From the IMG/VR virus record IMGVR_UViG_3300031760_004705, positions 1 to 64,000 of that record: DNA of 64,000 nucleotides; one strand, written 5' to 3'. Shown here one piece after another: positions 27,305 to 64,000 of this stretch (position 1 is its first letter; the number at the start of each line of letters is the position of its first letter). The stretch is from a virus (lineage: Duplodnaviria; Caudoviricetes). Made by a program: the position numbers and the translations under genes. Below the pieces are notes generated by a model. That model had not been told where the DNA came from. It saw only the letters and a program-made list of their open reading frames with translations, and ran no database searches.

Positions 27305-27814
27305 TTATAATGGAATTGATACAGTTGGATTTTGTAATATGTAAGCAGAAGCTCTAAAATAATAATTACTAGAAGTACTAGTCATAGGCTCTGATGTCTG
27401 TCAGTATAAATTAGGCGTTAATGGAGTTGAATCAGTATATGCAGTTCCTCCATGTAAATATGCTCTATCTGTTGTTTTACCTGTTGATATATCTATTTCA
27501 AAAATAGGAGCTACTATATCTGTACCAGTAGCTATCGTGACTGTTTGATTTGCAGTTGTTGGTTGGCTAATCTTTAATATAATAAAAAACATACCTAAAC
27601 AATTTCATCTTGCAAAACGAATTAAAGAAGGAGTAATACCAGAAGAAAAATTAAAAAATGTATTTGTTATACCAGTATCACTATTTTCATTAAAAAGAAC
27701 AAAATCATTTTTATCTTGTATGTTATTTAATTTATCTCGAGCAATAGCATCACATATATCATACGTAGTATCCCCTACTTGAATTTGAGAAATTTTATTT
27801 GTATTTTCAGCCAT
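27305..27814 (-). CDS. Docking-motif tail protein (169 aa, 2 TGA=Trp)
   Basis: KISQIQVGDTTYDICDAIAR; track ORFs 27605 and 27401 join. Confidence 0.75.
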
Positions 27815-27815
27815 T

Positions 27816-27872
27816 TTATTCAATCCTTCCTATGTATGGCGGCATCGTTCCATATATATTTAACATAGGCAT
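27816..27872 (-). CDS. Possible 18-aa mini-ORF MPMLNIYGTMPPYIGRIE
   Basis: Strong SD AAAGGAG upstream; TAA ends just before the next ATG. Confidence 0.3.
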   Translation of the reverse strand: MPMLNIYGTMPPYIGRIE

Positions 27873-27939
27873 TATTTTCTCCTTTTCTTTCTTTAGTTTT
27901 AATCTAAATCAAATTCTTTATTCTTAATGTTGAAATAAA

Positions 27940-28500
27940 TTAAATTTCTTCTTCGGCTCCACCTAAGAGATCGGCCATAACAAGTAGAATATCATCAAGA
28001 GTTTCTTGATTTTCTGCAACTCTATCTTCAATATCACTACCAGCGAGTTCTGCTACGACTTCAAATAAATCATTAGTGTCAGATTCTATTGTATTAAGTC
28101 GTTCAGGACCTTTTGCTAAAAAGACATTATCAGCTAATTCTTTTTCTGTATAAAGAATATAGCGAAGAATAATCTCTTCTTCTTCATATGCTTCAACTTT
28201 AGGTTGATCAATTACATATCGAATAGAAGCACTTTTTATTTGAATAGAAGGATCTTCTTTACTAGGGAGATATTTGAAAGCACCCGTTGTTTCATTGATT
28301 ATTTTAATGCGAGGATCATTTTCTTTTAAGAAAAGAGTTTCTCCTGTATTTAATTCAAGATAACTAACAAAATAATGACCTTTTTCAGGAACCATTTCAT
28401 GATAATGAATAATTTTTTCTTTTTCTAAGTGACCCAAATTTAAATCGGGATCAAAAATTTCATTTCCTTCATTATCTAAAATTCGATATTGATTATCCAT
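27940..28500 (-). CDS. Tail-associated protein X2 (possible fibre-assembly chaperone), paralog of 30101-30628
   Basis: ILDNEGNEIFDPDLNLGHL..YTEKELAD..DILLVMADLLGGAEE. Confidence 0.7.
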   Translation of the reverse strand: MDNQYRILDNEGNEIFDPDLNLGHLEKEKIIHYHEMVPEKGHYFVSYLELNTGETLFLKENDPRIKIINETTGAFKYLPSKEDPSIQIKSASIRYVIDQPKVEAYEEEEIILRYILYTEKELADNVFLAKGPERLNTIESDTNDLFEVVAELAGSDIEDRVAENQETLDDILLVMADLLGGAEEEI

Positions 28501-28533
28501 TGGAACTATTAACTCCTCTCTTTTGCTTTAATA

Positions 28534-29082
28534 TTAATCATCAGAAATATCAACTACTCTAGCAGTTGTCTTTCATAAAAGCATTCTAGCTCTTATTTGA
28601 AATGAATTAGGAGTTATTGTAGTAGATCTTAAATTATAAAAAGATAACACACATCCTCCACCAGTGGATCCTGATTCTGATGCATTGGCCATTTCTGTTA
28701 ATACTAAATCTGTAGGTGTACCTTCAATACCTACCACTCCTAATTGATGATATCCCTTTTTTAAATATTCGTCTTGAATATTTTTTGTATGATCCGAACT
28801 TAAAGTTCTTAAAGTAATACTGCTTGTTGTTTTACTAGGAAAATGAGTAGAACTAGAATAATTACAAACTCTAACTCATTTAAAAAGAGTCTGATTTACG
28901 GTACCTGTAAGATTGCCTATAGTAGCAGCATTAGTAGTTGCTGTATCAAGAGCTTCTGTTGCTTTGTCAAAAGTATCTGATATTGCCTCATTTAATTGTA
29001 CCATACTTGCACGAGCTCCTGCATCTTGTATATCGTAGGTTGTATTACCCACTTTAATTTGTGAAATCGTTGGATTAGCCAT
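28534..29082 (-). CDS. Docking-motif tail protein (182 aa, 2 TGA=Trp)
   Basis: TISQIKVGNTTYDIQDAGAR, short coiled coil, beta-rich C-terminus. Confidence 0.75.
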
Positions 29083-29085
29083 AAA

Positions 29086-30081
29086 TTAATAACCTCCTTC
29101 AATTAATATTAATTTTGTAGTGCCAGAAACGATACTACCATCATTAGTTGAATTAATTACTAATTTATAACTTGAAATATCTGGAGTATCAACTGTAGTA
29201 TCAAGATTAGTTATACTATTATTATTTTTATCATATCTATATAATTTTTCAATACGATCAATTACATGATTATGAGGAATGGTAAAATTAAATCTATGTA
29301 AATCAGCATGTTTAAAATATAATACATGCGCACTTGAAGTATCTTCTAAATAATTTTCTAAATCACTACTATAAGCAATAATACTGCCTTCTCTTGGAGG
29401 ATTATCTCCTATAATTAGTTGATCTTTTAAATAGGATACTTCAATGATTTGTATAGGATCTAATCTAGAATCTTCATTACCATCAATTAAATAATCTGAA
29501 TTTTTAACTTGATTTTGTAAAAATTCTAGTCTAGATGGACACCCTGTTTGAATTGCATTACTATATTGTGCCACGTCTTCTGTTGCATCAAGTAAATTTT
29601 TAAGATAAGTTTTTCAAAAAGATTCTACTAATCTTGCAACAGAACTTATTTTAGATGTGGTAATTATTTGATTCCAATTATATTGATATCACTTTGATCA
29701 AGCAAGATCTTTATTTATTGCATAAATTATATAAGTAACTCCTGCATCATTATATTCTAATGTATGTCATATTTGAATAACAAGATTATTATTTAATGTT
29801 ATATATGTAGTATATTCTTCAAAATTTGAACTTAATTTATAACCAGTATAATCTTCTACATGAGTTCCACCCATATCTAGCAAATATTCTCCCCTATCTT
29901 CCTCTACGGGAATTATATTACTATTTATAGTATACATAGGATTATTATTTTCATCAACAAGTAAATCTAAATCTAATAAAGCATCATTATTTTCACTTGG
30001 AGACGTAATTCCAAACCAAGTAGGAATATGTAATCTTGGGAGGGGTAAATCCCCTAATTGTTCATATGGAGTTGCTGTCAT
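29086..30081 (-). CDS. Hypothetical tail-region protein (331 aa, 4 TGA=Trp)
   Basis: Track ORFs 29767 and 29086 share a frame and join via TGA. Confidence 0.7.
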
Positions 30082-30100
30082 TTTTACCCCTCTCAATTAT

Positions 30101-30628
30101 TTATTCTTCTGATCCACCTAATAAATCAGCTATAACTAATAATAAATCTTCAATTGTTTCTTGAGCTTCAGCTAACGATGTGGGACCATTAGCTAAAAAT
30201 TCTTTATCTGAAAGTTCTTTTTCTGTATAAGGAACATATCTATAAAAAGTTTTTATTTCATCTCATGCGGGAACTAGAACGTTATCAATTACAGGAGCAA
30301 TAGTTTGACCAACAATAGTTCGTTCTGGTTCACCATCTAGGGATTGATAATTAAAAATTCCCTTTTGACTATCAATAATTTTAACATGAGGATCATTTTC
30401 ATTTTCAACTTTATAAACTTCTCCATCAGTAAATCTAAAAGAGACAACTTTATAATGTCATTGTTCTGGAATAGATTCGTGATGAATATTAAATTCTTCT
30501 TTTCTAAGATAGCCAAGTTTAAGATCTGGATCAGTAATTTCTTGGTTATCTTGATCTAAAATTGGATACTCATATGAAAAACCAGTGTCTTCTACTGATT
30601 CAATATTTTCTTCTAAGAGCTCGTCCAT
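30101..30628 (-). CDS. Tail-associated protein X1 (175 aa, 2 TGA=Trp), absent from the track
   Basis: ILDQDNQEITDPDLKLGYL..YTEKELSD..DLLLVIADLLGGSEE; SD AAGGAG. Confidence 0.75.
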
Positions 30629-30647
30629 TTATAGCTCCTTTCCTTAA

Positions 30648-31148
30648 CTATCCTAAAACTATAAAAGCTTCTCTACTTCATGTATTAGCACCATCAATAC
30701 TATATTCATTTGTTGCTAAATTTCTAATAAATAAATTCGTTTGAAAACCAGAACTATGAGTAATATACGTAACCATTACTGTATTTACAGTATGTCATCC
30801 TAATGTTCCTAATCAAACACCTTCCGTACTTTCTTCGTAATCTTCATCAAGAAGGTATCCCGAACCTGGTGGATAACATGCGACTTGTCTTTGTACCCCT
30901 ATTAAACCTGCAGTAGATACTCCTGGAAGAGGTGTAACTCCTGATGCAAGAAATTTATTAACAGATATTTTAAAATTATTTAATCTGGTAATAGCAGTAT
31001 CACTTTTTGTTTTTGCATTAGAAGCATTAGTTCTAATTGTAGACAAATCAGAAATAGTATTTTGTTTTCCAGCAAGAGAAGCTCGTGCAGTAACATCATG
31101 TATATTATAAACATTTTCACTTATTTGAAGTTGTTTAATATATGGCAT
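30648..31148 (-). CDS. Docking-motif tail protein, tandem paralog C (166 aa, 3 TGA=Trp)
   Basis: IKQLQISENVYNIHDVTAR..GKQNTISDLSTIRTNAS. Confidence 0.8.
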
Positions 31149-31162
31149 TTTACTTCTCCTTT

Positions 31163-31633
31163 TTATCCTAATTTAATATAAACATCTTTACTATTAGCAT
31201 CACCTATTGCTACTGTTACTGTTCCAGTTCCGACTTTTCTTGAATAAAGTATTGTATTACCGCCAGAATAATATACTCTTTGTACAATAAGAGAAGCAGC
31301 GCCAGGATTAAAACCAGTAGCTCCTAAAAAAGTATATCCAGATGGAGCTGTTTTATCATCTAAAGTTATAGTTTTTGCAGTTCCCAATCGTCCTGCAGCT
31401 GGACCTGCAGCAAAAGTTACTTGAGCACTATTTTTTGCAGCTTTATAGGTTATATCAAAATTATTTAATCTATTAATTGCAGTTGTAGCATTTGTAGCTC
31501 CAGTAGAAGCATTACTTCTAATTGTAGATAAATCAGAGATAGTATTTTGTTTTCCAGCAAGACTTGTACGACTGTCAGCGTCACAGATATCATATACTGT
31601 ATTACCTATTTGAAGTTGTTTAACATCTGCCAT
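31163..31633 (-). CDS. Docking-motif tail protein, tandem paralog B (156 aa)
   Basis: VKQLQIGNTVYDICDADSR..GKQNTISDLSTIRSNAS. Confidence 0.8.
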   Translation of the reverse strand: MADVKQLQIGNTVYDICDADSRTSLAGKQNTISDLSTIRSNASTGATNATTAINRLNNFDITYKAAKNSAQVTFAAGPAAGRLGTAKTITLDDKTAPSGYTFLGATGFNPGAASLIVQRVYYSGGNTILYSRKVGTGTVTVAIGDANSKDVYIKLG

Positions 31634-31647
31634 AATTCATCTCCTTT

Positions 31648-32118
31648 TTATCCCTTTTTAAAATATACATCTCTACAACTTGCATCACCTATTGCTACTG
31701 TTACAGCAGATGTAGTCATATTTCTACCATTTATATAACTAATACCGGCTAAATGATTTAACTTTGTAGTAATTATTGCTGGCGATCCAGGATATCATCC
31801 AGCAGTTCCTAAAAACTTATGCCCAGAAGGCGCGGTTTTAGTACTCATTGTTAATCTACTTTCAGCGCCTAATGCTCCTTGAGCACTAGAAGCAGCAAAA
31901 GTGATTTTACTTGCATTTGTTGCTGTTACGGCACTAAAACTAAAATTACCAATTCTAGTAATTGCTGTTGCTGCTTGAGTTTTACCTGTAGAAGCATTTG
32001 ATCTAATCGTAGATAAATCAGAGATAGTATTTTGTTTTCCTGAAAGACCTGATTGAACAGTGGCATCACAAAGATAATAATTCATATCACCTATTTTAAT
32101 TACTTGAATATCTGCCAT
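31648..32118 (-). CDS. Docking-motif tail protein, tandem paralog A (156 aa, 1 TGA=Trp)
   Basis: IQVIKIGDMNYYLCDATVQ..GKQNTISDLSTIRSNAS; reading through TGA gives the same length and C-terminus as paralog B. Confidence 0.8.
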
Positions 32119-32127
32119 TTTAACTCC

Positions 32128-32904
32128 TTATGAAATGCCAGTAACAACAGTTTTTTTAGTAACTCCGGTTACAACAGTTTTCTTTGAAATATTTGGAATT
32201 GTAAAAGCAGTACCCAAAGTTGGAGCAGATCCAACAGAAGTAACATTTGGAATAGATTTTGCAGTATAAGATAAACTTGGCAATGTACCAACTGCAGTCA
32301 CATTTGGAATTGACTTTGCTGTATAAGATAAACTTGGTAAAGTTCCAACTGCTGTAACATTTGGAATTGATTTTGCACTATATGATAAACTTGCAGCTGT
32401 GCCTGCAGTTACGGTAGCAGAAGCTCCATTTGTAACCTGGTCTTCTCCACCATTTAAAACATATTCAGGGAAAATTACTCTTTCATTTGTTGAATCATAA
32501 GTAATCTGTACTGCATTAACACCAGAGACTACTGTATTTGGAGTTACTGCAGTTGGGGTATTTGTAGTTCAACCTGTAATGTCATCCGCAGGGATTGCCG
32601 TTCCTAATGTTGGTAATGTACCTGCACTCCATGCAGTAATATCATCTGCAGGAATCGCAGTTCCAAGAGTTGGTAATGTACCTGCAGATCATGCTGTAAT
32701 ATCATCTGCGGGAATTGCTGTACCTAAAGTTGGAGCAGAACCTACAGATGTAACATTCGGTACTGTAAAAGCTGTACCAACTGTGACTGAATCGCCAGTA
32801 GTTACAGTAACAGAATCTCCTGTAGATACTGTACCATGTATTGCACTTGAATCTTTAATATTATAGGTAGTGCTACCTAATTTTATTTTTGAAACATCAG
32901 CCAA
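32128..32904 (-). CDS. Short repeat fibre with docking motif (258 aa, 2 TGA=Trp)
   Basis: VSKIKLGSTTYNIKD; 3x20-aa and 3x19-aa tandem repeats flanking a central segment; TTG start. Confidence 0.8.
32220..32395 (-). repeat. About 3 x 57-bp tandem repeat (SLSYTAKSIPNVTAVGTLP)
   Basis: ataaact anchors at 32271, 32328, 32385. Confidence 0.9.
32565..32745 (-). repeat. 3 x 60-bp tandem repeat (TLGTAIPADDITAWSAGTLP)
   Basis: Exact 60-nt period; the Trp position is TGA/TGG/TGA in the three copies. Confidence 0.9.
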
Positions 32905-32917
32905 TTAATCTCACCAC

Positions 32918-33490
32918 CTAAATATTCATTGTTATTGTATCACTTGCATAAGTGAATAAATTCTTTCAAGAAGGACTTCAATCTGTTGCTTTGTGTCCTT
33001 TTTCTAATTTTACATTTTTTATAGTAACAGTGGTTCCCGCAGTTGTATTACCACTTGCACCTAATCTTCCAGCAATACAATTTTTTAATGCGGCTGCACC
33101 ACTATTAAAAGTTCATGTTACTCAATATTTTTTATATTCAGTTGTTAAAGTAAAGGTAGAATTACCATCAGAAGATGTTCCTGTAATACCTTGATTATTA
33201 ACACAAGAAGCATTTTGAACAATACCAGATGCGTTATTATAAAAATAAGAAATCATTTTTGTATTTGCTACAGATGCTTTTGCTTCAAAAGACAAAGTTC
33301 AAACATCATTAGGTTGAACCGTTGCAATATTACTTCAAACTTTAAAATCAGAATAACCAGAAGAAGGTACTGTTCCAGTAAATTCACCTTTCGAAGCAGG
33401 TAAATAATTGTATCCACCTCATTTAGAAAATCTATCAACAATAGAATAAGTAGTACCATTAGTACCTTTAATAGCTTTAATATCTGCCAT
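32918..33490 (-). CDS. Docking motif + carbohydrate-binding-module-like jelly roll (190 aa, many TGA=Trp)
   Basis: IKAIKGTNGTTYSIVD..GGYNYL..[W]TLSFEAKA..YKKY[W]VT[W]T..VKLEKGHKATD[W]SP. Confidence 0.7.
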
Positions 33491-33505
33491 ATGTACTACT
33501 CCTTT

Positions 33506-34159
33506 CTATTGGAAAAATGTAATCGTCTCATTAGCATAAGTTGCTAGGTCATAATAAGATGGAGTTCAGTCTGTAGGTTTATTGCCTTTTTCTAATTTTG
33601 CATGAGCAAAACGGCAAGTTAAACCAGTACTATTTCCAGTCACGCACATGCCAATTAAAAATTCTCAATCAAGTTTAGCACTACTGCTTGGTTGGAATGT
33701 GAAACGATATTGTGTTCAAGTATTAGCTGGAATAGAAACATTATTTTGTGAAGTTCATCCAGTATATCCAGCTGTTGCAGACCCATTTCTTCAACCAGTA
33801 TGCATATGTGCAGTTGTTGCAAGGCTAGACTTTAATCAGCAAGTAAAAGTATAAATCTCTCCAGCTTCAATTGCCCCAGGTTTGGAACATCAAGAACATC
33901 CTCTATTTCCTGTACCTGTATCATTATTAAGAACTAAAGAATTACTACTATTATCATATTCCTCTAAAGTAAATAATGAAATGGGCGAATTATATCCAGC
34001 AGTCTGTCCAAAAGTAAATGCAGCAGACATTGTAGTTGCTGGAAGTACATAATTATTAGTAGCACCTAAGAGATTTTCATTTCCAAAAGTAGAAACTTTA
34101 TCTTGTAAATCATAAGTGACATTATTTAGTCCTTTAATCTGTGAAATTAAATCTGCCAT
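33506..34159 (-). CDS. Docking motif + CBM-like domain (217 aa, about 7 TGA=Trp)
   Basis: ISQIKGLNNVTYDLQD..NENLL..YTFTC[W]LK..[W]TQYRFTF..AKLEKGNKPTD[W]TP. Confidence 0.7.
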
Positions 34160-34167
34160 AATGTCAC

Positions 34168-34788
34168 CTACTCACTATATAATTCAATTGTTTCGTTACC
34201 AATAAATTTTGCAATATCTTCTGGCGCAGGACTTCAATCAGTTGGTTTATTACCTTTTTCTACTTTAACTTTTGCCATTCAAATTTCATCTGCGGTAGTT
34301 GTATTGCTACCAATCATTAAATTAAATCCTACACAATTTGCAGGAGCAGTGTATACAGGTGAAACATAATGGGCAGAAGTAGTAGTTAAAGCTGGAGAAA
34401 ATCAAACCTGAGAAATAATACTACCAGAAGAATTCATTCAATGTATTCCCGCACAACATTTTTGGCCAGCCGTTTTAGCATATGCATCAAAAGATACTAT
34501 AATTTGATCTCCTTCTGCAACATCCCCATATCCTCCACGGTGAACAGAATTTTGAGAATAGCCTTGATATTGAGTTGTGGTTGAAACAATGTGCATATAA
34601 TTAATTCCATTAATTGTTACAACTTCTCTAGTAGTAGGACTTCCTCAATTTACTCAAGGTGCAGGTGGAGTAGCACTTAAAAATCTAGTATTATAAACAA
34701 GATTGCGGCCGCCCCATATAGAATAATCGTCTCTGATATTGTAATTAACATTATCAGAGGTGGCTTTTATCTGAGAAATAACTGCCAT
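34168..34788 (-). CDS. Docking motif + CBM-like domain (206 aa, about 6 TGA=Trp)
   Basis: ISQIKATSDNVNYNIRD..WGGRNLVYN..VSFDAYA..VKVEKGNKPTD[W]SPAPED. Confidence 0.7.
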
Positions 34789-34806
34789 TTAAAAGCCACC
34801 ACCTTT

Positions 34807-37443
34807 CTATGCAGGAACACTAGTTGTTGCAGATGTTCCAGTAAATGTCGAAGTATAAGTCTTAGGTACTGCAATATTACCAGTAACAAGTCGTACTGCT
34901 GTACCTGTAAAGGTAGGAGCACTAACACTACCAGCAGGTGTATAACTGCCAGTAGAAGTTATCGTTGCAGCTGTACCAGTAAATGCAGGTGCAGAGTTCG
35001 TTCCAGCAGGAGTATAATCTTGAAGGACAAGTCGTTTACCTGTGCCCGTAAATGTAGGCTGAGAAACTGTTCCGGCTGGAGTATATGATCCGGTTGAAGT
35101 AATGGTTGCAGCTGTACCTGTAAATGTAGGCTGCGTAGATTGATAAGCTGCATCTCCAGTTTTAACGGTTGTATTAGATCCCTTAGTAGGTAGTGTACCA
35201 GCAGACCAACCAGAAGCAGAACCGTTAGTTGCAGTTGTAAATGACATTACTTCATTTGAAACTGAAGTTCCTGTAATAACTGTTTGATTTGTAACTGTTA
35301 AAGTAGGTAATGTTCCAACAGCAGTAATACTATTAACAGTTGTAGTTGTGCCCGCAGTTTTAACTGAAATAGTTGGGGTACTAACTGTACCAGCTGGGGT
35401 ATAAGATTTACTAACTGAAATCGTTGCAGCCGTACCACTAAATGTTGGTTGTGATACTGTACCTGCAGGAGTATATGTTGCAGTACCGCTACTTGCAGGA
35501 CTAACTGTTAAACCAGTAGCTTTTGTACCTGTAAATGTAGGTGCAGCAACACTACCTGCTGGAGTATATGATTTGCTAACTGAAATTGTAGCGGCCGTAC
35601 CTGTAAATGTTGGTGCACTATTCGTACCCGCAGGGGTATATGTGGTAGTTCCACTAGAGGCCGCACTAACTGTAGCAGTTTTATTTTCAGTTGTAGCAGT
35701 ACTAGTTGCAACCGTACCAGTTGCAGTTACAGTATGCTTATGATTTCCCTTAGCAGCAGTAGATGCCGTATTTCCAAGAGCAAGAGAAGCACTAATTTCT
35801 ACATACCCAGCAGTTGATCCACCATAACGATAAGTTTTATTTGTAGATACATCTACATAAATTTTATCTGCGGCAGCTGCAATTTCAGTAGTATGTGCAG
35901 ACTCTGCATAAAATTTATTGTTATATAAATATCCTTCTTTAATTTCATCAATTGAGCCTGGAAGGACTGATGTAGGAATTGTACCAGTTAATTTACTTGC
36001 ATTTAATGAACTAGATGAAGTTAAGAATCCTGTCACTGTATGAGTATGAGTTCCTGTTGCAGTAATATGGCCCTGAGCATCATATGTTACATAAGGTACT
36101 GCTAAAGTAGAACCACTAGTTGCAGAAGATGTACCTGCGGTTCCCGCAGTTACAGCATTAGTATGTTGAATAACTGTTCCATTTAATTTAATGCCAGTAT
36201 TAGCAGTATATGTTGTATTATTATCAGGTACGGTAACTGTACCAAGACTTTCACCATTTTTATTTTTTAAAGTAATAGTATGATCTGAAATACTAAAACT
36301 AGCTGCATAAGAAGTCTTAATATTATTACCAGATTCATCCTGAGTTGCTTTAGTCGCGGTAGATGCATTTCCATTTAAGGGACCATTAAATTGAGTAGAA
36401 GTAACTTGCGCAGGAAAACTAGCATTTTGAGAATTATCGTAGGAATATAAATGACCCTCTTTTGCCATATTAGAAGGAGTTATCCAGCCAACGCCGCCGA
36501 ATCCCATAATTCTTTGAACTGTTAAGCCATTATAATTAGTATTTCCACCATTTGCCTTAAAAATAAATCTTATACGGCCATATTGAGAACCAGCTGTATT
36601 TCCATAAGTGGCAATACCACTTGTATTAATTATATTATATCCACTTCAACCAGAGATTCCTATATCTTCTGTTTCATTTACAAAAGTTGTAGGAGTAGAT
36701 TGTAGTGCTTTTTGAATTTGTACGGTACAAGAACTACTGCCATTTGTTGAAATATAAATAACAAATTTATTTAAAACAGTATAAACAGAAGCGGCTCCTG
36801 TATCAATTGTTATTCTTAATTGATATTTATTTGTATTTGCAGTTGCTTTATTTGTGTTATCTGCTTTTCCAATTAAAAAACTTCCGCCTGTTCCAAAAAG
36901 AGTAGCATTAACGTTTGCTCCAGCTCCATAATCAGTTCAAGTTGATCCTCCGTCACGACTATATTCAATTGTTACAGAAGAGCCTTTTATAAAAGCTAAT
37001 CTATTAGCTCCTAAATTTGGAACCATTGCTGCATCAATAGGGCCATACGATGCCGCAAAATTTTTACCTCCTCAAGTTAAATAAGCTTCTGGATAACCAG
37101 TTAAAGTATGAGTATGAGTTCCAGATTTTGTGATATGTCCTTGTGAATCATAAGTAACATAAGGAATATCTATTGTCCCATTTACACTTGAGGTAGCACT
37201 TGATGCTCCTGCTGTCGCGGCAGTAACATTATTTGAATGGTTAAAAGTTGTACCCGAAAGGCTTAAACCACTACCAGCACTATATGTAGTATTATTATCT
37301 TGTTGTGTAAAGGTAAAAGTTGTACCATCTCGTCTAGTTGCTGTAAAGGTGGTACCATTTCTTGTAATATTAGCTATTGCACTTCCATCTTTAATATTAT
37401 AGCTACTATTATTAGGAAGTGTAATTTTTGAAATATCTGACAT
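34807..37443 (-). CDS. Long tail fibre with docking motif, HxH motifs and nested YTPAGT/PTFTGT repeats (878 aa, 3 TGA=Trp)
   Basis: Track ORFs 37072 and 34807 join in frame; ISKITLPNNSSYNIKD, duplicated PYVTYDxQGHITxxGTHTHTxTG, Thr/Gly/Ala repeats. Confidence 0.85.
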
Positions 37444-37490
37444 TAATATTATCACCCACCTTTAGTGTAATCACCTAATTTGTTTCATAT

Positions 37491-37532
37491 AAAATAAAAA
37501 GGGCAACTCTGTAATTATACAAAGTTGCCCTT
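37491..37532 (-). terminator. Intrinsic terminator (minus strand)
   Basis: gggcaactttgta-taat-tacagagttgccc then tttttatttt. Confidence 0.8.
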
Positions 37533-37543
37533 GAAAGCATTTA

Positions 37544-39181
37544 TTAACTATAAGTAACAGTAGCGTCAGTATTGTTTTGAGTAAGTGTAACGTTAATTGT
37601 TCCTTCAGGAGTAAAGGTTGTATCTCCACTAGTTGCTTTACTAACTGTAGTAGTTTTATTAGCAGTAGTTGCGGTAGAAGTAGCAACCGTACCAGCAGGA
37701 GTAAAGTTTCCACTAGCAGAAATTGATCCATCAGTAAATGTTGAAGTATAAGTCTTAGGTACTGCGATATTTCCAGTAACAAGACGCACTCCGGTACCAG
37801 AGAATGTAGGCTGAGACACGGTACCTTTAGGAGTACCTTTGACAGTAACAGTTGCTGAAGTGCCAGTAAAGCTGGGTGCAGTATTTGTACCAGCAGGAGT
37901 ATAAGTAACCTCACCACTTGAAGCTGCACTAACAGTAGTAGTCTTATTAGTATTGGTAAGACCAATAGTACCAGCAGGTGTATAACTTCCACTCGCGGAA
38001 ACTGCACCATTAGAGAATGTTGGCTGAGATACAGATCCTGCAGGGGTATAATCTTGTAAAACAAGACGCTTACCCGTACCTGTAAAGGTAGGTGCGCTCG
38101 CCGTAATAGTAACATCTGTAGTTGTAATTGAATTAGTTTTAGTTGCACCAATTTGATATAAACTCAATGTTTCACCTGAGACACTATAATAAGTAATTGC
38201 ATTCGCAGGAGCAGTCGCGCCAGGTGCAGCCGCAGCTAAAGCATTGACAACATTTACTGCTGTTGGATTTTTAATAGTAGTCGCAGAACCTCCACTTGTT
38301 ACTGAAATTGTAGGTGCGGTAACAGTACCTTGTGGAGTATATGTAGCGGTTCCGCTTGATGCAGGACTAACAGTTAAACCTGTAGCTTTTGTACCCGTAA
38401 AGGTAGGCTTAGAAACTGTACCTGTTGCAGTACCAGTAACACTAACTGTTTCAGCAGTACCAGTAAAACTTGCAGAAGTAGGAACTGGAATATCTCCAGT
38501 TACTAAACGTACACCCGTACCAGTAAATGTAGGTGCGGCAACCGTACCGGCAGGCTTGAATGAACCTGAAGAAGTAAGCTCTGATCCAGTAAATGTTGGT
38601 TGAGTTACTGTTCCCGTAGGCGTATATGTTGCCGTGCCACTTGAGGCAGGAGATACAGTAGCAGTTTTATTTTCAGTTGTAGCTGTTGTAGTAGAAACAG
38701 TACCACTTGCGGTACCACTAACTTCAACAGTACCTTCTGTTCCAGTAAAAGTAGAAGTATAAGTTGCGGGTACTGGGATATTTCCTGTCACTAAACGAAC
38801 AGCCGTACCAGTAAATGTTTTAGCACTAATACTGGCTTTATCATATTTAACATTAACCGTATTCTTAGTAGCTAAACTACCATAGCTATTAAGAGCATCA
38901 AGTAAATGCCATTTTTCACCATCATATAAGAATTCTTTAGTTGATGTATCTCCCGCAGTTGTTGGAGCAAAAATTAAATCGCCTTTAACAGGAGTATATG
39001 CACTACCATTTACTTGTATAGAAGATGTAGTAGCTCCATCTGTTAAAGCTGTAGTAGTAACACCAACTAATTTAACACCATTATCTATTGCTTCAAGAGT
39101 TTCAATTTGACCTCGAGCTCAAGAGTCTTTAATATTATAAGTATTACCATTAGGTAATGTAATCTTTGAAATATCTGCCAT
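37544..39181 (-). CDS. Tail fibre with docking motif and nested repeats (545 aa, 2 TGA=Trp)
   Basis: ISKITLPNGNTYNIKDS[W]AR; same repeat modules as 34807-37443. Confidence 0.85.
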
Positions 39182-39217
39182 TTAAGGAAATTCACCTTCC
39201 TCTCATTAAAATTCTAA

Positions 39218-39679
39218 TCATAATTCTCGACTAAGGACCAGAGTTTCTCCTAATTCTGATTGAGAAGAAGGTATATTTAATCTTTCTGCTTGTTTTTGAG
39301 CAGTAGTTAAATTTGAATATTCTGTCCCTAAATAAGCATTAACTTTATTTCTAATCGCATTTGTAACAGCAGTATAATTATAAACTGGTAAATCACCAAT
39401 GTATGCACTACCATCACCAACAGCAATTCCAATTTTATTTGGCTCTTGGAAAATATATACTTGTCCAAGAGTGGATGTTTTTCCAGACATAGTTGAATTA
39501 TAAGTTATTAATTCAGAATCAGGAATTATGTGGAGCCGTTTTCCATTATCCATGTCAACATACATGTCACCAAGACCATCTGTGCCAGCTCGTTCAATTA
39601 TAAAAATAGCACCGTCTTGCCGAGTTTCAGGTAAGGAGGTCCCTTGCGCTCCACGATAAAATTTAACTTTTCCAGCCAT
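39218..39679 (-). CDS. Tail/head fibre-associated protein (153 aa)
   Basis: VKFYRG..DGAIF..; NKIGIAVGDGSAYIGDLP, a motif typical of phage fibre proteins. Confidence 0.6.
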   Translation of the reverse strand: MAGKVKFYRGAQGTSLPETRQDGAIFIIERAGTDGLGDMYVDMDNGKRLHIIPDSELITYNSTMSGKTSTLGQVYIFQEPNKIGIAVGDGSAYIGDLPVYNYTAVTNAIRNKVNAYLGTEYSNLTTAQKQAERLNIPSSQSELGETLVLSREL

Positions 39680-39755: not shown

Positions 39756-41543
39756 TTAGGCTAAGCTACCCCAAGTAAGAGCAGCGTCAGTATAATCCTT
39801 AGCGGCCTGTTCTGCGGCAGCAGCTGCACCAGCAACTTCAACCTCAGTAGAATCAACTGCGGTAAGTTCACCATCAACCTGGGTTACGCCAGAGACAACA
39901 AATACACCAGCATGCTGTGCAGTACCAGTAGCATCAAGGTCAGCATCAAGGTCAGCAAGACCGCCAGAAACAACGCTATCAGCATAAGCCTTTGCACCAT
40001 AGACGGTTGCAGCATCAGCAGTATCAGAAGCAGAACCAATTACAGCATTCTTTGCACGAGTTGCAGCACCAGCGAGATCAACATCAATGCTATCAACAGC
40101 AGTAATCTCACCATCGACCTGAGTTACACCAGTAACAACAGCAACTTTCTCAGTATCGGTTACGGTTGCATCAGTAGTAGCATCAAGATCTGCATCAAGA
40201 TCTGCTACAACGCCATCAGCATATGCTTTAGCACCATAGATAGTGTCAGCACTACCAGCATCGCCAGACTGACCAATAATAGCAATCTTAGCACGAGTAG
40301 CGGCTCCAGCCTTATCAGCAGCTGCAGAATCAACAGCGGTGATAACGCCTTCAACCTCAGTAACACCACTTACAACTGCGATAGCTTCAGTATCAGTTTC
40401 GGTAGCTGCGAGAGTAGCATCAACATCAGCGTTAAGAGCAGCAACACCAGCACCAGTCTTCTCATCAACATAATCAACTACAGTAGTAGCAGTTGCAGTT
40501 GCAGGAATAGTTCCGATTGTATCAAGAGCAGCCTTAACAGTAGAAGCACCATAAGCAACATTCTGAGCAGTTAATGCAACTTCATCAATACCAGTGATAA
40601 CGCCATCAACCTCAGTGATACCAGTTACAACACTACCAGCAGTAGCATCGAGATCAGCATCAAGAGCTTCTACAGCATTTTGAATCTTCTGGTCGACTGT
40701 TCCGCCAGTTCCAACAGCAGACTCAAGGGCATTGATAGCCTCAGCTACAGTCTGCTTAGGATTAGCACCCTCAGCAGCCTTATAAACGATCTTAGAAGCG
40801 GCAATCTCACCAACAGTAGCCTCAATCTTATGATTAGTATCTGTTAAAGTGATTTCATTGTTGCTCTGTACTGAATTGTACTCAATAAGATCTGCTACAT
40901 TGATGTAGAATGGAGTACCATTAGCAATAGTCATCTTGATAAAAGTACCAGAATTTCCGCTACCATCTTGATCAACTAATTCACCATTAGTAGCAACAAG
41001 ATCTTTACTGATCTCAATCTCACCATTAGTAATAGGAGTTCCGCCTTGACTAAAGGTGTACTTAGAAACAAAACTATCGTTTGCTCCACCGACTGTCTTA
41101 GTAACAGTAACAGCACCAGCTTCTCCACCACTTTCAATCTTAGAAACTAATTCAGCAAGAGCGGCTTCAACATTAGTAGCATCAAGCTTACCAGCAGTAT
41201 CCGCAACGCTTACATCTGCGGCAGCTCCACTCTTAGCAACGGCCGCAAGGCTATTGTCAAGAGTAGTAACAGCGTTCATAACAGTTTCGTCACCTGCGGC
41301 AATGCTCTTATCAATGTAATCAATAAGATCAGTGTAATCGCCAGAAACAGGTAAAGTGCCAATGTAAGACTCGAGAGTAGCAAGGTCCGCAGCTACATTT
41401 GCAGCGCCACCATCATAGAGGGTAGAGCCTTTGTAGATCTGACGAGGATTGCCGATAAAGTAAATAGTATTACTATCAAACGCGGCAATTTGCTCTGGAG
41501 TTGCACTAGCAGCATATACAAATTTAACTAAATTAGCAGCCAT
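39756..41543 (-). CDS. Ala/Asp/Thr-rich repetitive structural fibre (595 aa), probably abundant
   Basis: Four LDADLDAT..VVxGVTxVDGxITAVD repeats alternating with helical segments; higher GC and distinct codon bias; ends LTWGSLA. Confidence 0.7.
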   Translation of the reverse strand: MAANLVKFVYAASATPEQIAAFDSNTIYFIGNPRQIYKGSTLYDGGAANVAADLATLESYIGTLPVSGDYTDLIDYIDKSIAAGDETVMNAVTTLDNSLAAVAKSGAAADVSVADTAGKLDATNVEAALAELVSKIESGGEAGAVTVTKTVGGANDSFVSKYTFSQGGTPITNGEIEISKDLVATNGELVDQDGSGNSGTFIKMTIANGTPFYINVADLIEYNSVQSNNEITLTDTNHKIEATVGEIAASKIVYKAAEGANPKQTVAEAINALESAVGTGGTVDQKIQNAVEALDADLDATAGSVVTGITEVDGVITGIDEVALTAQNVAYGASTVKAALDTIGTIPATATATTVVDYVDEKTGAGVAALNADVDATLAATETDTEAIAVVSGVTEVEGVITAVDSAAADKAGAATRAKIAIIGQSGDAGSADTIYGAKAYADGVVADLDADLDATTDATVTDTEKVAVVTGVTQVDGEITAVDSIDVDLAGAATRAKNAVIGSASDTADAATVYGAKAYADSVVSGGLADLDADLDATGTAQHAGVFVVSGVTQVDGELTAVDSTEVEVAGAAAAAEQAAKDYTDAALTWGSLA

Positions 41544-57103: not shown

Positions 57104-60100
57104 TTAGTCTGTTGAAGTGGTTGATGAAGGTATAGAAACAGTAACTTTATTGTTTGTAACGCTAAATTCTTTACTGTATGCATCAACTGTATGAGTATGA
57201 CCATGAGCTGCATAAGTTGTACTACCAATTTTATTTTTAATTCAAGTGCTTCAATCGGTCTTAGTATCGCCAGTAATCAATTTTTTAACTCAATCGCCTC
57301 ATCCAGTCGTAGTGTCGCCTTTAACCGCGAGTGCTACTTCTCCTGCAAATCCATTATCACCTCAAGAAATATCACTTTTACTTATTGTAAAAGTTTGATC
57401 TGATATTGCGCTAAAAACTGGTCGTTCATTTGTTAATGTTATGTTTGTTCCGTGAAGAGTAAATGTACCGTTATATTTACTAATTGAAAAAGAATTAGTA
57501 GTACCAGAAGCTGTATTTGTTACAGCAGTTCCATCTCCATGAAGTGTAGCACCCTTTATTGCGCCATCAGCAGTAATATCGCCACCAATACCGCCCGCTT
57601 TAGTTACAGTAATATTACCTTTATTTGTAGCAATATCACCCTCTTTAGTAGTAATATTACCCTTATTCGTAGTAATATTACCTTTTTTAGTAACAATATT
57701 ACCTTCTTTAGTAGTAATATTACCTTTTCTAACTAATATCTGTTTACCTACAGTTAAAGTACCGCCAAAAATAACATTCTTGTTAACAGACAAACCAACA
57801 CTTGGATTTTTAAGTAATCCTCCTTGAACACTTAAACCATTTGAATTATATTGAGGGGCTGTTACATAAAAATTTTCTCTGTATTGTCTTGTATCTCCAG
57901 CAGTATAATGTTCTGGATAAATACCAATTCTTGCAGTCGCCGTACGCACTTCAAATACTGGATAAGAACTTGCTGCTTTTTTAGGATTATTATTTTTAAA
58001 ATCTGCGTTATTACTTAAAGCTGATGCTCAGCCATTATTAGAAGAATTTAAAATTAATTCTGCAGATGTTCCTGAATTTCCAGTAATGGAAGGGCCAGCT
58101 TTTAATAAAATTTGTGGATTAGATTCTGTATAAAGATTTCCTTCTCCAAGACTAGAAACATTAACTTCAAAATTATCTTGCATTTTTAATAAAATATTAG
58201 ATTCTGCATTTAATCCAATATTAGACTGTGTCATAGACAAGCCATTATAATTATTAGTATCTATAAGAAAACCAGCAATTAATGATTGACCTTCAAGTTT
58301 ATAACCCTCATCTGTAAAAAATCCAAAACGACGATTAACTTTTTCATCTTCATTAATTGTTTGAAGTTGTACATCAAAATCTGTAAATGTTTTTGCTTGT
58401 GAAATAATAGATATTCCACCACCAGTAGAATTAAATAATTGTATACCATTAGAATCGCCTATTAATTCAATTATATCATCTTCGTATCCAATACTAGTAT
58501 TATTGTCATCAAAAAGTTCTGTACGATTTGTAACTATTTTTCCATAATACTTACCCGCATAAAAAGAATAATCTTTTTGAGATATAAAATTTTCTGTCGA
58601 TACATATTTTACAGATTCTATTGGTTCAATACTACCTGTTATTTGAACATATTGTCTTTTTTCTGAATCTTTATATATATATCCAGGATTTAATTCTGAA
58701 TATACTAAATCATTTTTATTTATATAATAAAAAACACCATTCATACCACGAACAACATTATATTCTTTTAATGAATCATCATATTTTTTCATTGATGAAC
58801 CAGTTCAAAAATATAATGATGAGGTATTTAAATTATTAGCTACAAATGTATCAATAAGTTCGTTATTATCAACTCTAACAACACTTCTATATTTAGCATC
58901 AGGGTTATTGTTACTATCTTTTTCAATTGCCGTTATCTTTATAAATTTCTCCTTAATATTATCATAAAAATATTGGTCTATTGCAATTGATTTTGTCGTA
59001 ATAACATAACTTTCTTCTCCAGTATCGCTTATTTCTAAATCATATGTTGGATCGTTTTCTGCAAGATATATACTATTATTTATTTTATAATATTTTATAT
59101 TTTGATTAGACACTAAACAATAGTAATTAGTATTATTATTATTATTATTTATTTGATAATAAAATGGTATCGTAGTAGCTTTTTTATAATCTGTGCTATT
59201 AATTTTTACATATAAATCATTTTTATCTCAAGAATCTTTTTCAGCATAAACAGTTGTAGAATTTCCATTTTCATCAGTACCTACTGTAATAGATATATAT
59301 ATTTTTGGATTTGATTGCATATTAACAGTTTTATTATTAGTAGTATAAATAACAATATTTTGTCCTGCTTTTTGCTCTAATCCTATGTTAGTTTTAAAAT
59401 TACCAGCAGACATTAAAGATGATTCATAATTATCGTCTTTAAAAAGATTAAAATGAGCTTTCTTTACTTGTATTTGTAGTCCATCTTTATTTTCAGAGTA
59501 ATCATTATCTGCTCCTAATAATAAATATGTATCAGTTTTTTTAGAATTTTTAGGATCTTCTGCTGAACTAAAAGTTGGATTAGATGCTAATTTAATATTT
59601 TTTCCATATATACCAATAGGTCGAGTATATTCATTATTATTACCTAAACCACCTGTTATAAATAAAGTAGAATCTCCTCCACTATTTGGATTTATTCCAT
59701 CATTAGAAACGAATAACTGCCCAATAGTATTAGATCCTATTTTTATTTTTAATCCTGTATGAGTTGGAAAATCCATTGGAATAGGAGGTGTTACATTTAA
59801 ATTTTTTGCAAAGTCGTCGAAAGCTCTAAAAGTATTTACTGAAAATTGAGTCGTATAAACTGAATCTTCATTTTCACCAATATTTACAATACTACTAACA
59901 GTATTGGCAACAAATTCTCCTTTACCATTAATACCAGCTAAATAAGTTCTAGAACCTTCTTCATAAATCGTTCTAGTTGTAATTTCTCCATTTGAATTAC
60001 GACTAGATTGAGTTCAATTAGTACCGTTATGTCTAAAAATTGTAAATAAAGTAGGAGTCTTAGGATCTAGTTGAATTTCTAATGAATCTTCTGGACGTAA

Positions 60101-63100
60101 ATATATACCTAAATCATCCGGAGCTATATCTGTTTCTAATAATTGCCGACCTTTAATAGAAATATAGGGATCTGTTCCAGAATGCAATAAAATTCCAGAA
60201 TCTTTATAATCTATATCTTTTTCATGATGACCGCTATAAGGATCTGAACCAATTTGAGTTATTTTTCCTGTTCTAATTTCTGGAACATAATCATTAGAAT
60301 AACGAGGTCCAATCTCACCACTCTGAGTATAATAAAGACTTCGATGCCCTAATCTTCATCCACCTATTTTACTTACTCCACCTGGTCTTAATTCTATTCT
60401 ACCTTCATTGTAATCATCATTTTTTAATCCTATATAATTACCTTTTTCATCTGTTTGAATAGAATTGCCATTAGGTAATCCAAAATCTGCATTGCCAGTT
60501 TTAGCATCTAAGAAAATAGATTGGATACCATAAGAATATCCAAATAAACCTATTTGATTTTCTTCAGAAGAACTGCCAGTATAAGTATTAGTTTTACCCA
60601 TTAAAATACCGGTAAAACGATTATTAGAATCTTTTTCTCCCGCACCTACTTGCGGAGCAAGTATTGCACCACGTTCATCATCAATACTAATACTATTACC
60701 ATCTCATGCATTCACAGAATCTAAACCAAAAGTATTTAATGTCATATTAATAGGAGCATATACAGTTGCATATAATTTTATTTCTTCATCTGAATCAGGA
60801 ATATAAATTTTTGCTTCTATTCGATTATTTGTTACAGATCCATCATATACATCATTAGGTAAAACATAGATCATAGCTTCATTTGTATCATCATTTAAAA
60901 TTTGAATATTAGCATCAATAATCGCTTCTTCATATGGAGAATAAACAGATTTAAAATAAGCTTCAGGAGTTAATGCAACATTTGCTTTTGTATAAATTGT
61001 CTTGTAAAAATAATCTTGTTCTCCTATTTCAGATTTTTCAAGAGCTACATATCCATATTCATTATCTTGTTCATTAACAATAACATATTTATATAAATTA
61101 TATAGTTCATTCTCTTTTTCTGACTCTGTAGTTAATTGATAACGCGATTCTTCTCAAATTGGTAAAGGATAATATTTTTCAATAAGTTGAGATTCACCTT
61201 GTTCATTTTCTACTTGTGTAGTAATTTTATAAAAATAATTTTTATAAACAGCTTGAGAATCTCATCATTCATTCACATTTTTAGAAAATCATCAACATTC
61301 GTTTAAAGGTTTATCTTCACGTTCTTTATCTCTAATATCATTTTCTGTAAGGTCCGTTCTATGAGGAAGTTCTTCTTCAATAAATTTATTAATAGCTTCT
61401 TTTTGTAAAATCCGTAATCTTTCTTCTTTGAATTTAGCTAATAATAATTCATTTTGAGATTGAACCTTTGCTATATAATTGTCATATAGTCCAGTTCCTC
61501 CAGTTATTACTTTATTACCTTCTTCATCAAGTATTTCATTACCTTGTTCATCAACAGCTAAAGTACAATATAACTTTAAATTTTCATCTTTTTCTTTTTC
61601 ATATACTTGTCTACGCTGCTCTTCTTCTTTTTCTAATGTACTTTTTCTTTGAGATATTAATTTAGAAAAAGTATTCTTAGTATTTTTTTCTAATCCAAGA
61701 GTAAAACTAGGTTCTAATTCAAAACATTCTTGAATAATATTAGAATTATTTGATTTATTTACATCTAATCCTCCACGAGCTTCCCAATAGATGATAGAAT
61801 TTTCAGGAAGGTTCGTTAATTTTAACCCTTGATTATGATTAAAAATAGGATTGCGGCCGTCCGCATTATAAACAACATCGTTTAAATATGTTTTTTTATC
61901 AATTGCAATACGTTGCATTGGTAATAATTCATTGACTAAAGTTGAATTATTTTCATATTCAATAATAGGTAAACTAAAGAAACTGTAGTAAGTTTGTTCT
62001 GATTCTTCTTCTGTAATAGCATCTTTATTTTTTATTAAAATTTCTGATCTAATGTTCTGAAGTAATAAACTTCTAGTATCATTATGATAATTAGGATTTC
62101 ATTTAATTTCATTAGCAGTTATTTCAAAATATTTGCCCAGTTCATTTCCTCTTGAGTTTCCTGCTAAAATTCATCTTGGGTATCCCGAGGCAAAATTTAC
62201 TGAATCAATTTCTTCACCTTTTTGATAAACATGAGCTTTTAATACAGAATTTTTATTTTCAGCATTTGTAACAATTGTTTGTTTATTTTTTAGTACATCA
62301 ATATCACCATCTGAATCTGCAACATTAAACATTGCTTGAGTTTCAGTTGTATTTTCATCTATTGGAACATTTTTTTGTACATATAATGTTAGTGGTTGTT
62401 CATGAAGAACAAAATATTTATCATTTCCATTATAACTAATTTTAGAAATCATATCTGTACCATTAGTACCATTACCACCTATTTTATTAAAATAAAAATT
62501 AGTATCAGCATAAAGATCTATATCGTTAAAATTAGCATGGCAAGTAATTTGATTATTTTGCGCATCAGGATTATATAATTTTTCAATATCAAAAGTGCAA
62601 TCTGGTCCTTTTAATAATTGCTCTTGTTGTGTTGCGGGATTTAATACTAGTCCATCTGGAGGAATAATTAAAGAATTTTCTAAATTAAAAATTCATTCAA
62701 AATTAATATTTGAACTAGAAACAGAAAAAGATAATCCGGTTGGGCCTAAAATTTTTGCATGTAAAGGTTTAATTTCTAAAGGATCTTTTGTTTTAGTAAG
62801 AGTTGGAGCATTTCCATATTCATCATATTGAAATACCTGATCTCCATTTTCAATTATAATTCTATAATTTGAAGAAGCTCCCATTTTTAAATTTGTAATT
62901 TCAATAGAATCTGTACCGATATCATAATAATTAGCAGTAGTTTCTGAAATAAAGATTTTTTGAACTGTACACTCAACAGTAAAACCTGAGCTAGATAAAG
63001 AAACAGGGTATTGAATTCTTGTTGCTCTATTAGGAATCTTTGTTTCAACTAATTCATTTGTAGTTCTATCCAAATATCACATTTTAATTTTAGAAACAAT

Positions 63101-64000
63101 ATTATCTTTTAAAATATTAGAAGTGTTTTTTGAAAAAGCATCTTCTAAAAATAAAACAGATGAATTAGCACTATCTGCTATGCTTCATTGATATTTATAT
63201 AATGGAGTTTCTATACTATCATTATATCCATATTCTTGATAATTGTCTAAGTTTTCATTATCTTCAACAGAAAGAGAGTTCTCTTGAATTAAACAACTAA
63301 TTGTAGGGCTTCCTTCTGAAAAAGTAAATTCAGTGCCTAAATCAGATTCTAATTTTATTTTTGTTGAAACTGCATTATTATAAACAGTAAATGTTGTTGA
63401 TAAAGTAACTGTTTCATCAGAAGTTTTATATAAAGCTATACATTTATATAAATTTTTGTATGCTCAATTTTCATTACCGGTAGTTTGAAAAATAAATCTA
63501 CTAGTATTTTTTAATCGTTTCCATCCTATTCCCGCATAATGATAATAATCTGGATGACTAGCATTAATTACTTGTGAACTTTGTTTTAATCAAATATATT
63601 CAACATTTGCATTAGAAGTTAATTCTTCTATTTGATTTCTATAAACGTGAGCATTAAATGTAACTTTATCATCTGCAGATAAACTAGATAAAACTCCAGT
63701 ACTATTCTCTGCACATTCAACCTTTAAAGAAAAATTGTTAGATTCCGCATCAGATTCTTTCAATAAAAATAATTGAATGTTTTGACAAAATATATCATAT
63801 CCAGTTCCTTCATCTTTAGGAGCGTCACTAGGTGGCCATAATTGTTCTTGTTCTGCATCTTGATTAAATCCATCTTTAAAAAATAAAATATTTTTTATAT
63901 ATTTAAAACGAGAAAATTCTAATTTTTGAGATGGAATTATATATTGACTATTTCAATTCTTAAATGCTAAAGGATTACCCATCATTGAATCTGAAGTTAA
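57104..64000 (-). CDS. Giant tail protein (central fibre/spike-like), 5' end outside the window, more than 2290 aa with many TGA=Trp
   Basis: Nine track ORFs from 57362 to 63073 share one frame ending at TAA 57104; IGLFGYSYGIQSIFLDAKTGNADFG..GRIELRPGG; C-terminal AHGHTH. Confidence 0.8.
57610..57740 (-). repeat. About 6 x 21-bp repeat encoding (K/E)GNI(T/V)T(K/N) heptads
   Basis: KGNITTKEGNIVTKKGNITTNKGNITTKEGDIATNKGNITV. Confidence 0.85.

Follow-up and report, generated by a model that had tools for sequence, protein, structure and literature searches.

An N-terminal tag shared by eleven tail-region genes of a TGA-recoded phage, and its linkage to a family of candidate adaptor proteins

The stretch of DNA analyzed here, referred to as the window, comprises 64,000 nt, positions 1-64,000 of the viral record IMGVR_UViG_3300031760_004705, and the whole contig of this genome measures 88,423 bp. 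Its minus strand contains an array of 11 genes (27305-39181) whose products all begin with variants of one short peptide, the tag, and just upstream of the array lies the gene of a 157-residue protein, p157 (39206-39679), a candidate adaptor or 'socket' for these tags. A first-pass annotation, made from the letters of the window, had described the shared motif and the diversity of the protein bodies behind it. When a regular expression for the motif was applied to the six-frame translation of the window under genetic code 4, exactly 11 matches were obtained, all at residues 3-10 of minus-strand open reading frames (ORFs) and none elsewhere, in agreement with that description. The tagged ORFs start at 39181, 37443, 34788, 34159, 33490, 32904 (a TTG codon), 32118, 31633, 31148, 29082 and 27814. 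A looser expression run over the whole contig added only non-N-terminal matches, which arise by chance. The bodies differ as described: two are long repeat-rich fibres (545 and about 878 aa), three resemble carbohydrate-binding modules (CBMs), one is a tandem-repeat protein, three are paralogues consisting of a coiled coil and a beta sandwich, and two are other small proteins. Three untagged genes (27940-28500, 29086-30096 and 30101-30628) lie inside the range of the array.

Alignment of the 11 N-termini leaves M1, Y15 and D19 invariant. An 'xxAR' extension, said at first to follow the motif often, is indeed common in tags from elsewhere (~83%), but only four of the 11 window tags possess it, a fifth having SR instead. 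At the DNA level, the 11 gene starts are only 56% identical, synonymous sites vary, and each gene has its own ribosome-binding site (RBS). Because the start regions are this divergent and their synonymous sites vary, conservation of the tag is at the level of the peptide.

From 25 to 64 kb, the ORF map of the minus strand falls apart into short frames under translation table 11, while under code 4, where TGA is a sense codon, it yields the closed frames of a tightly packed late operon. Since the frames close only on read-through and the read-through products match known families, this phage genome reads TGA as a sense codon (a code 4-like recoding). The endolysin, for example, matches GH25, ELLD and PG_binding_1 despite 15 in-frame TGA codons. 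No tRNA gene of any kind, hence no TGA suppressor, was found on the 88-kb contig; a 101-kb contig is listed for the same proteins, so the 88-kb copy may be incomplete. The plus-strand half carries replication genes (GyrB/GyrA, ligase, DnaB, a PolIII-alpha-type polymerase and NrdD). Upstream of the window, the contig contains, in order, terminase, portal, capsid and tail genes and then two giant ORFs (3,117 and 2,684 aa), and the minus strand terminates in a holin and the GH25/ELLD/PG_binding_1 endolysin. The array follows the tail and baseplate genes and precedes a 65-aa ORF, the holin and the endolysin (the lysis cassette); it therefore occupies the usual position of receptor-binding protein (RBP) genes in siphoviruses of Gram-positive hosts. 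The window is the late region of a siphovirus-like phage in which TGA is recoded to Trp. The host probably belongs to the Clostridia of the gut or rumen, as suggested by the GH25 endolysin and by the binning of metagenome-assembled genomes (MAGs), which places related loci in Clostridia from ruminant, rabbit and human guts.

The tag extends far beyond this phage. A profile built from the 11 N-termini and searched against a collection of 5.8 billion proteins matched 749 of them at E <= 1. Such a search had been recommended by the first-pass annotation, and it found the tag at the N-terminus of unrelated bodies among the matches listed: in these 120, the tag lies at residues 3-5 in all but one (residue 17), and none has a Pfam family or a name. 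Homologues of the first tagged gene led to 80 IMG/VR loci. Together with other loci then fetched, these contain 198 tagged ORFs, 161 with the tag exactly at residue 1, and 156 distinct tagged proteins with very diverse, unrelated bodies. Heuristic per-locus calls assigned 45 loci to TGA-recoded, 21 to TAG-recoded and 20 to standard-code phages. The consensus reads M-A-D-I-S-K-I-T-L-P-x-G-T-T-Y-D-I-K-D-A-x-A-R, with Y15 present in 97% and D19 in 100% of tags. Tags of the same phage are barely more similar than tags of different phages (0.61 versus 0.595, reached by 53 of 2,000 shuffles), a relationship that fits a universal connector. A phage usually has two tagged genes, side by side; three to six are rare, and nine to 11 occur only in the window and in loci L003 and L073. 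Because most relatives have two tagged genes, the 11-member array represents a lineage-specific expansion. The extra tags of the window lineage and of locus L086 form a shorter subtype, V/I-G/N-x-T-T-Y, from which the proline is missing; across the wider data set, tag subtypes do not separate by gene position.

In most loci, a jackhmmer search started from p157 picked out the ORF whose end lies just upstream of the first tagged gene; what these ORFs share is a conserved domain at the C-terminus. The family consensus begins with an Mtd_N-like segment, TTxxWNxQxxLIxExGxIYIYxDY...PGIKIGDGxAYLIDLPF, continues into a stem, HINNxxIHVTxEERxFWNNK (H..H/WNNK), and ends after ~10 further residues in a terminal 'E-x-L-V-F-T-x-N' strand ('ETLV(F/L)') and a stop, the next gene starting with MADISKITLP.... 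PF18454 (Mtd_N) matches 10 of 38 family members (best E 6.6e-7); p157 of the window is unmatched, though jackhmmer aligns it to the family. The family profile also matches the stem motif of Gp15 of the Listeria phage PSA (PDB 6R5W) at E 7.6e-7. The N-termini of socket ORFs fall into at least five unrelated types, as would be expected if the N-terminus fits each phage's own baseplate and the C-terminus is a common joint. Used alone, the socket profile retrieved 4,399 cluster representatives (clustered at 50% identity) at E <= 1e-3, 531 of them at E <= 1e-30. In nearly all short matches, the end of the profile is also the C-terminus of the protein, most often exactly 18 residues past WNNK, which indicates that the point where the socket polypeptide ends and the tagged one begins is conserved.

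In the window's own member, p157 (39206..39679, minus strand, as are all genes of the array), an N-terminal beta domain is succeeded by an Mtd_N-like beta domain, then by a helix and finally by a C-terminal strand that is conserved, ..GETLVLSRELWLEF. Apart from p157, no ORF of this genome scores with both the socket hidden Markov model (HMM) and a position-specific scoring matrix (PSSM) of the socket tail (16.8 bits for p157, versus <=7.6 for any other ORF). A Pfam scan found no BppU_N match in p157. The first-pass annotation had looked for the socket elsewhere, in the repetitive protein of 39756-41543 or in a baseplate protein (the products starting at 42000, 44067 and 45498), and in this respect it was not upheld. 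Homologues of the 39756-41543 product occur in only three closely related fetched loci besides the window, and it has no similarity to p157; the other three are equally lineage-restricted. The conserved partner is the product of 39206-39679, which that annotation did not name.

Two relatives place the socket domain in a recognizable setting. In P0187, a Prophage_tail (Tal-like) protein of 662 aa, the socket domain forms the C-terminus; in the locus of this protein, the tagged gene follows a second, small socket gene and not P0187 itself. P0233 combines an N-terminal BppU_N with a C-terminal socket domain, ends with '..NENIIFTTN', and is followed by a gene that begins MPDISKITLPSGTTYNLKD. Given the known role of BppU, a socket domain at the end of a BppU_N protein therefore stands in the position of a known RBP-holding domain. 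Siphophage locus L093 (4001-7536) has two socket domains, one as the C-terminus of a Tal-like protein and the other in a separate 164-aa protein; a tagged gene comes after the second, and another ~1 kb downstream.

Socket and tagged genes are also neighbors. Of the 83 loci selected by tag, 69 have the stop of the socket domain at a distance of 5-37 nt (mostly 13-18 nt) from the tagged gene that follows, and 17 of 24 MAG loci contain the pair. The reverse test used five loci picked by the socket profile alone and looked up without reference to tags (P0130, P0161, P0187, P0220 and P0233); all five have a tagged gene right after a socket gene, either 13-18 nt away or overlapping. The tag is thus tightly and reciprocally linked to one partner family. 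The motif, its strict N-terminal position, its spread, this reciprocal adjacency and the location of the socket at the C-terminus of Tal-like and BppU_N relatives are all read directly from the data. In loci L006-L085, the pair is found in apparently TGA-recoded, TAG-recoded or standard-code phages on contigs of 40-184 kb, and evidently the module has moved among very different phage backbones. An apparent socket-tag fusion in L029 was rejected, as its TGA is a real stop with an RBS after it. One socket protein (P0220) has a tag-like N-terminus, weak and partial. A tblastn search of ~50,700 GenBank phage records yielded no match to two window proteins or to the canonical socket and first tagged protein.

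Structure prediction with AlphaFold2 (AF2) agrees with the suggestion that the tag is a beta hairpin. In the model of the TGA-free, 156-aa product of 31163-31633 (mean predicted local distance difference test, pLDDT, 82), the tag is predicted as a hairpin of strands 5-9 and 12-16 at pLDDT ~61; residues 29-56 then form a helix (a coiled coil), and residues 59-155 a beta sandwich predicted with confidence. A fold search of this protein with VIA-align returned distal lectin-like domains as its best matches (KP32 gp38, Z 6.4; R1 pyocin fibre, Z 6.3), weak scores in a range common for this tool. The model of p157 (pLDDT 69) has two beta domains and a helix, and its tail at 136-153, the conserved last 18 residues, falls below 50; such a tail is compatible with a segment that becomes ordered only upon binding. 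Foldseek returned nothing at E <= 0.001 for the p157 model or the 156-aa tagged protein, and sequence searches of solved structures with two tagged proteins and the tag profiles gave no meaningful match. A complex prediction for three copies of p157 (1-153) with three of the 31163-31633 product (1-80) gave no answer (score 0.00), which counts neither for nor against binding.

The array opens with tagged protein 1 (37544..39181, 545 aa), the family's conserved first tagged gene, with homologues in the 80 IMG/VR loci; it contains the canonical tag ISKITLPNGNTYNIKD, a short coiled coil, a 'GVTTTALTDG' domain and repeated FTGT/YTPAGT modules, and W21 within its tag region is encoded by TGA. Tagged protein 2 (34807..37443, about 878 aa from the ATG at 37443) joins the tag to a long repeat-rich fibre. 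Three CBM-like proteins follow: 34168..34788 (206 aa; PHROG tail and host-range families, E down to 6.6e-13), 33506..34159 (217 aa; PHROG tail families, E 8.5e-9) and 32918..33490 (190 aa; PHROG matches, E 2e-9 to 1e-5). PHROG tail or host-range families thus match all three, at E 1e-8 to 1e-13, and all three end with a '..KLEKGxKxTDWSP..' motif. Only the 33506-34159 product has a Pfam CBM_4_9 match, at E 9.6e-4 and 20 bits, under the curated cut-off of 25.9 bits. In these proteins and their relatives (window 32918-34788; P0011-P0102), an extreme C-terminal strand is kept after KLEKGxKATDWSP (..NETITMNI, ..NETIELYSE, ..SETITFFQ). By eye it recalls the terminal strand of the socket and would permit chaining or self-capping; with the PSSM it is not significant.

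Downstream lies a tagged repeat protein (32128..32904, 258 aa, TTG start), inside which lie two in-frame tandem repeats unrelated to each other, at 32231-32393 (57 bp x 2.9) and 32574-32733 (60 bp x 2.7). The next three tagged genes encode the hairpin, coiled-coil and beta-sandwich paralogues: 31648..32118 (156 aa), 31163..31633 (156 aa, modeled above) and 30648..31148 (166 aa). Beyond them come an untagged protein (30101..30628, 175 aa), a second one (29086..30096, 336 aa), a tagged protein with the motif match (28534..29082, 182 aa), a third untagged protein (27940..28500, 186 aa) and the last tagged protein (27305..27814, 169 aa from the ATG at 27814), after which the 65-aa ORF, holin and endolysin follow. 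The 336-aa protein ends ..TKLILIEGGY (..GTTKLILIEGGY) a few bases ahead of the tagged gene starting at 29082, and this end resembles the C-termini of upstream genes, ..GQRLIFVEG (L069, L071 and L088) and ..GTKLIMPTG (L004), in tagged phages without a canonical socket domain. As a second socket in this genome, the 336-aa and CBM-like proteins were rejected, since their C-terminal strands, similar by eye, do not rise above background with the socket-tail PSSM. The products of 27940-28500 and 30101-30628 are paralogues with acidic C-termini (..LLLVIADLLGGSEE) and have no family match. The former gene comes directly after a tagged gene, and the latter has the ninth tagged gene on its upstream side and the 336-aa ORF on its downstream side; their products may be fibre assembly factors.

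On the other side of p157, the repetitive protein once proposed as the socket (39756..41543, 595 aa, TGA-free, window lineage only) has a fibre-like N-terminus and four to five repeats of a ~60-80-aa unit (..LDADLDAT..VVSGVTQVDGEITAVDS..AGAATRAK..YGAKAYAD..). The 2,684-aa giant ORF occupies window positions 57104-64000 and extends to contig position 65158, and the adjacent 3,117-aa ORF spans contig positions 65283-74636 (code 4). These two giant late ORFs stand between tail and baseplate-like genes; a tape measure is expected for at most one of them.

The reading that we favor, and consider reasonably probable, is that the ~20-residue hairpin docks varied host-binding proteins onto the p157-family adaptor as separate, non-covalently attached subunits. 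Each of the 11 tagged genes would specify its own distal tail-fibre or receptor-binding subunit, probably trimeric, and the first ~20 residues of every such subunit would form a beta hairpin serving as a standard connector, or plug. This hairpin would attach non-covalently to a C-terminal joint of p157, made up of the Mtd_N-like beta domain, the stem and the terminal 'E-T-L-V-(F/L)' strand that appears disordered when modeled alone, while the variable N-terminus of the adaptor would anchor it to the baseplate. In the joint, the adaptor's terminal strand and stem would come together with the hairpins of the incoming trimer, a split version of a fibre that is continuous in phages such as PSA. 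With one canonical socket gene and the same plug on 11 proteins, these proteins would have to occupy equivalent sites jointly or in competition. If TP901-1 is a guide, where one BppU trimer holds three RBP trimers, a mixture of binding modules might be displayed by virions or across their population; were the trimer ratio 1:3 here too and each tail equipped with several adaptors, one particle could carry many kinds, or particles could differ from one another. From the arrangement of genes and domains we infer that the partners bind physically and pair their strands, in what stoichiometry they do so, that the tagged proteins enter the virion and that each module binds a receptor. The plug-and-socket idea of the first-pass annotation is retained to the extent that there is an N-terminal module on unrelated bodies, a predicted hairpin and a reciprocal partner family; the socket it proposed is replaced by p157.

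Several observations weigh against this interpretation. The window tags are mostly atypical, Pro10 being replaced by Gly in five (with a gap in the alignment) and by other residues in four more, and p157 is itself a divergent member that lacks the HINN..IHVT motif and keeps '..NKVNAY..GETLVLSRE..'. Nor does this interpretation account for the stoichiometry, given 11 plugs and a single socket gene. As tag-selected loci were chosen via the first tagged gene, part of the synteny may reflect common descent of a gene block; the five socket-first loci reduce this concern but are few. Some tagged genes lack a detectable socket domain (L004/L005, L087, L088 and L069/L071); in such phages the upstream genes end in similar strands, e.g. 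..GQRLIFVEG. No fused socket-plus-tag protein occurs among the top 150 socket matches, so two separate polypeptides seem to be the norm.

Some of these observations would be accommodated if the tag were an autonomous N-terminal trimerization or folding-nucleation cap, in which three hairpins form a small barrel, the virion is reached through other surfaces or partners, and the p157-family gene is merely a conserved proximal fibre gene of the operon. A coiled coil or other trimer-forming segment directly after the tag is what such a cap would call for, and tagged genes without a detectable socket domain, together with the lack of a socket-tag fusion or of contact evidence, point the same way. 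We nonetheless regard a cap as unlikely: across phages of three codes, no body comes near the tag in conservation, and a shared external partner fits this better than self-association of unrelated bodies. The conserved break between socket and tag, their reciprocal adjacency, and the placement of the socket at the distal end of Tal and BppU_N proteins likewise speak for a partner. Slightly less likely still is a division of labor in which fibre subunits are confined to the first one or two tagged proteins and the small extras (150-260 aa) are lectin-like accessories, decoys or a module reservoir, sitting on the long fibres rather than on p157 in a branched or chained assembly. Most phages do have two tagged genes, the extras being lineage-specific; the extra tags here and in L086 belong to the shorter proline-less subtype, the long fibres contain many repeated modules, and CBM-like members keep a C-terminal strand (..NETITFFQ / ..NETIELYSE) that could serve in chaining. 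Yet the subtypes are not separated by gene position in the wider data, the C-terminal strands do not rise above background with the socket-tail PSSM, and the long fibres show no sign of sites. That the shared 5' ends are instead a nucleic-acid feature, such as a cassette-exchange recombination site or a translational signal with peptide conservation as a by-product, strikes us as highly improbable. Conserved starts could favor module exchange, and the bodies after the tag are very diverse between phages; but residues are kept at the 11 starts where DNA identity is 56% and synonymous sites vary, and conservation at the protein level holds in distant phages with three codes.

The principle of a docking peptide is already known (PMC6872550, PMC13352976, PMC4742702), and the present system appears to be a sequence-unrelated, widespread variant of it. 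In KP32, K11 and KP34, which are podophages of Klebsiella, a conserved docking peptide on the secondary RBP pairs with a branching domain on the primary RBP (PMC6872550), and this pair has been tested experimentally (PMC13352976). As in those phages, a short conserved N-terminal peptide on otherwise unrelated RBPs would here be fastened to a specific tail-protein domain, an arrangement that allows several RBPs per virion and module exchange, as proposed here. No sequence relation was detected, the Klebsiella peptides not having been compared directly, and the function is analogous at best. Pfam and PHROG scans, which were not complemented by a fold search on the long fibres, found no T4 gp10-like branching domain in the array proteins and their neighbors. 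In contrast to the KP32 type, every RBP here, the first included, bears the same plug, with up to 11 plugs instead of one; the role of partner falls to a small adaptor protein of its own or to the C-terminus of a Tal or BppU_N protein; hosts are Gram-positive; and genetic codes are alternative.

A further parallel is the baseplate of TP901-1 and Tuc2009, in which the N-terminus of BppU binds the hub, its C-terminal 100 residues hold three RBP (BppL) trimers, and BppA is an accessory CBM protein of the 'tripod' (PMC4742702). As read from the genes, the present phage would share with these siphophages of Gram-positive hosts an N-terminally anchored adaptor whose C-terminal ~100 residues would hold small trimeric stem-neck-head RBPs, as well as accessory CBM proteins, and one socket-family member (P0233) has a BppU_N N-terminus. 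It differs from them in that p157 has no BppU_N match, the socket consists of an Mtd_N-like domain and H..H/WNNK stem rather than the BppU C-terminal domain, and many different RBP genes bear one plug. No homology to BppL was seen: there was no sequence match to solved structures, and BppL was absent among the fold-search matches listed.

In K1-5, K1E and SP6, the adaptor gp37 carries two tailspikes. CBA120 and RaK2/phiK64-1 have branched fibres with four to about 10 RBPs (PMC10253068). Like these, the present phage may form multivalent virions by means of conserved N-terminal attachment modules; theirs are larger domains (T4 gp10-like XD, anchor) with hierarchical branching, whereas here one ~20-residue hairpin is found on all. 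With fibres of the Mtd_N type (PF18454) and PSA Gp15 (PDB 6R5W), the socket family has in common its Mtd_N matches and the H..H..WN.K stem, but theirs continue into the fibre, whereas the socket family stops ~18 residues past WNNK and a tagged gene comes next. No solved structure, Pfam family or GenBank phage record matched the tag, and the socket gave only partial matches (Mtd_N in 10 of 38, and the PSA Gp15 stem). The tag-socket connector is apparently undescribed and common in phages of gut Clostridia; judging by its sequences, it would work like the known docking systems while being a member of none.

A bolder extension of the docking interpretation, which we offer tentatively and hold to be possible but doubtful, is that the tag and the p157-family joint, adaptor strand plus incoming hairpin, serve the phages of gut and rumen Clostridia as a universal connector across lineages; thousands of phages with three codes would have preserved it as two polypeptides, so that modules could be mounted without co-adaptation. 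In the present phage, 11 modules would then compete, and each burst would consist of mosaic virions, a bet-hedging achieved by assembly and not by mutation or inversion.

If the pairing of tag and socket is real, it provides a sequence-defined rule for recognizing receptor-binding genes in the largely unannotated Firmicutes phages of the gut and rumen, where the socket (~4,400 cluster representatives) and the tag (hundreds of proteins) are without a name, a Pfam family or a GenBank-phage relative. It would also explain how very different binding modules are transferred between unrelated phages, even across genetic codes, and, much like the site now exploited in Klebsiella phages, would constitute a natural plug-and-play mounting site for such modules. 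The array of 11 genes would then represent an unusually large multivalent adsorption apparatus in a siphovirus-like phage of a Gram-positive host.

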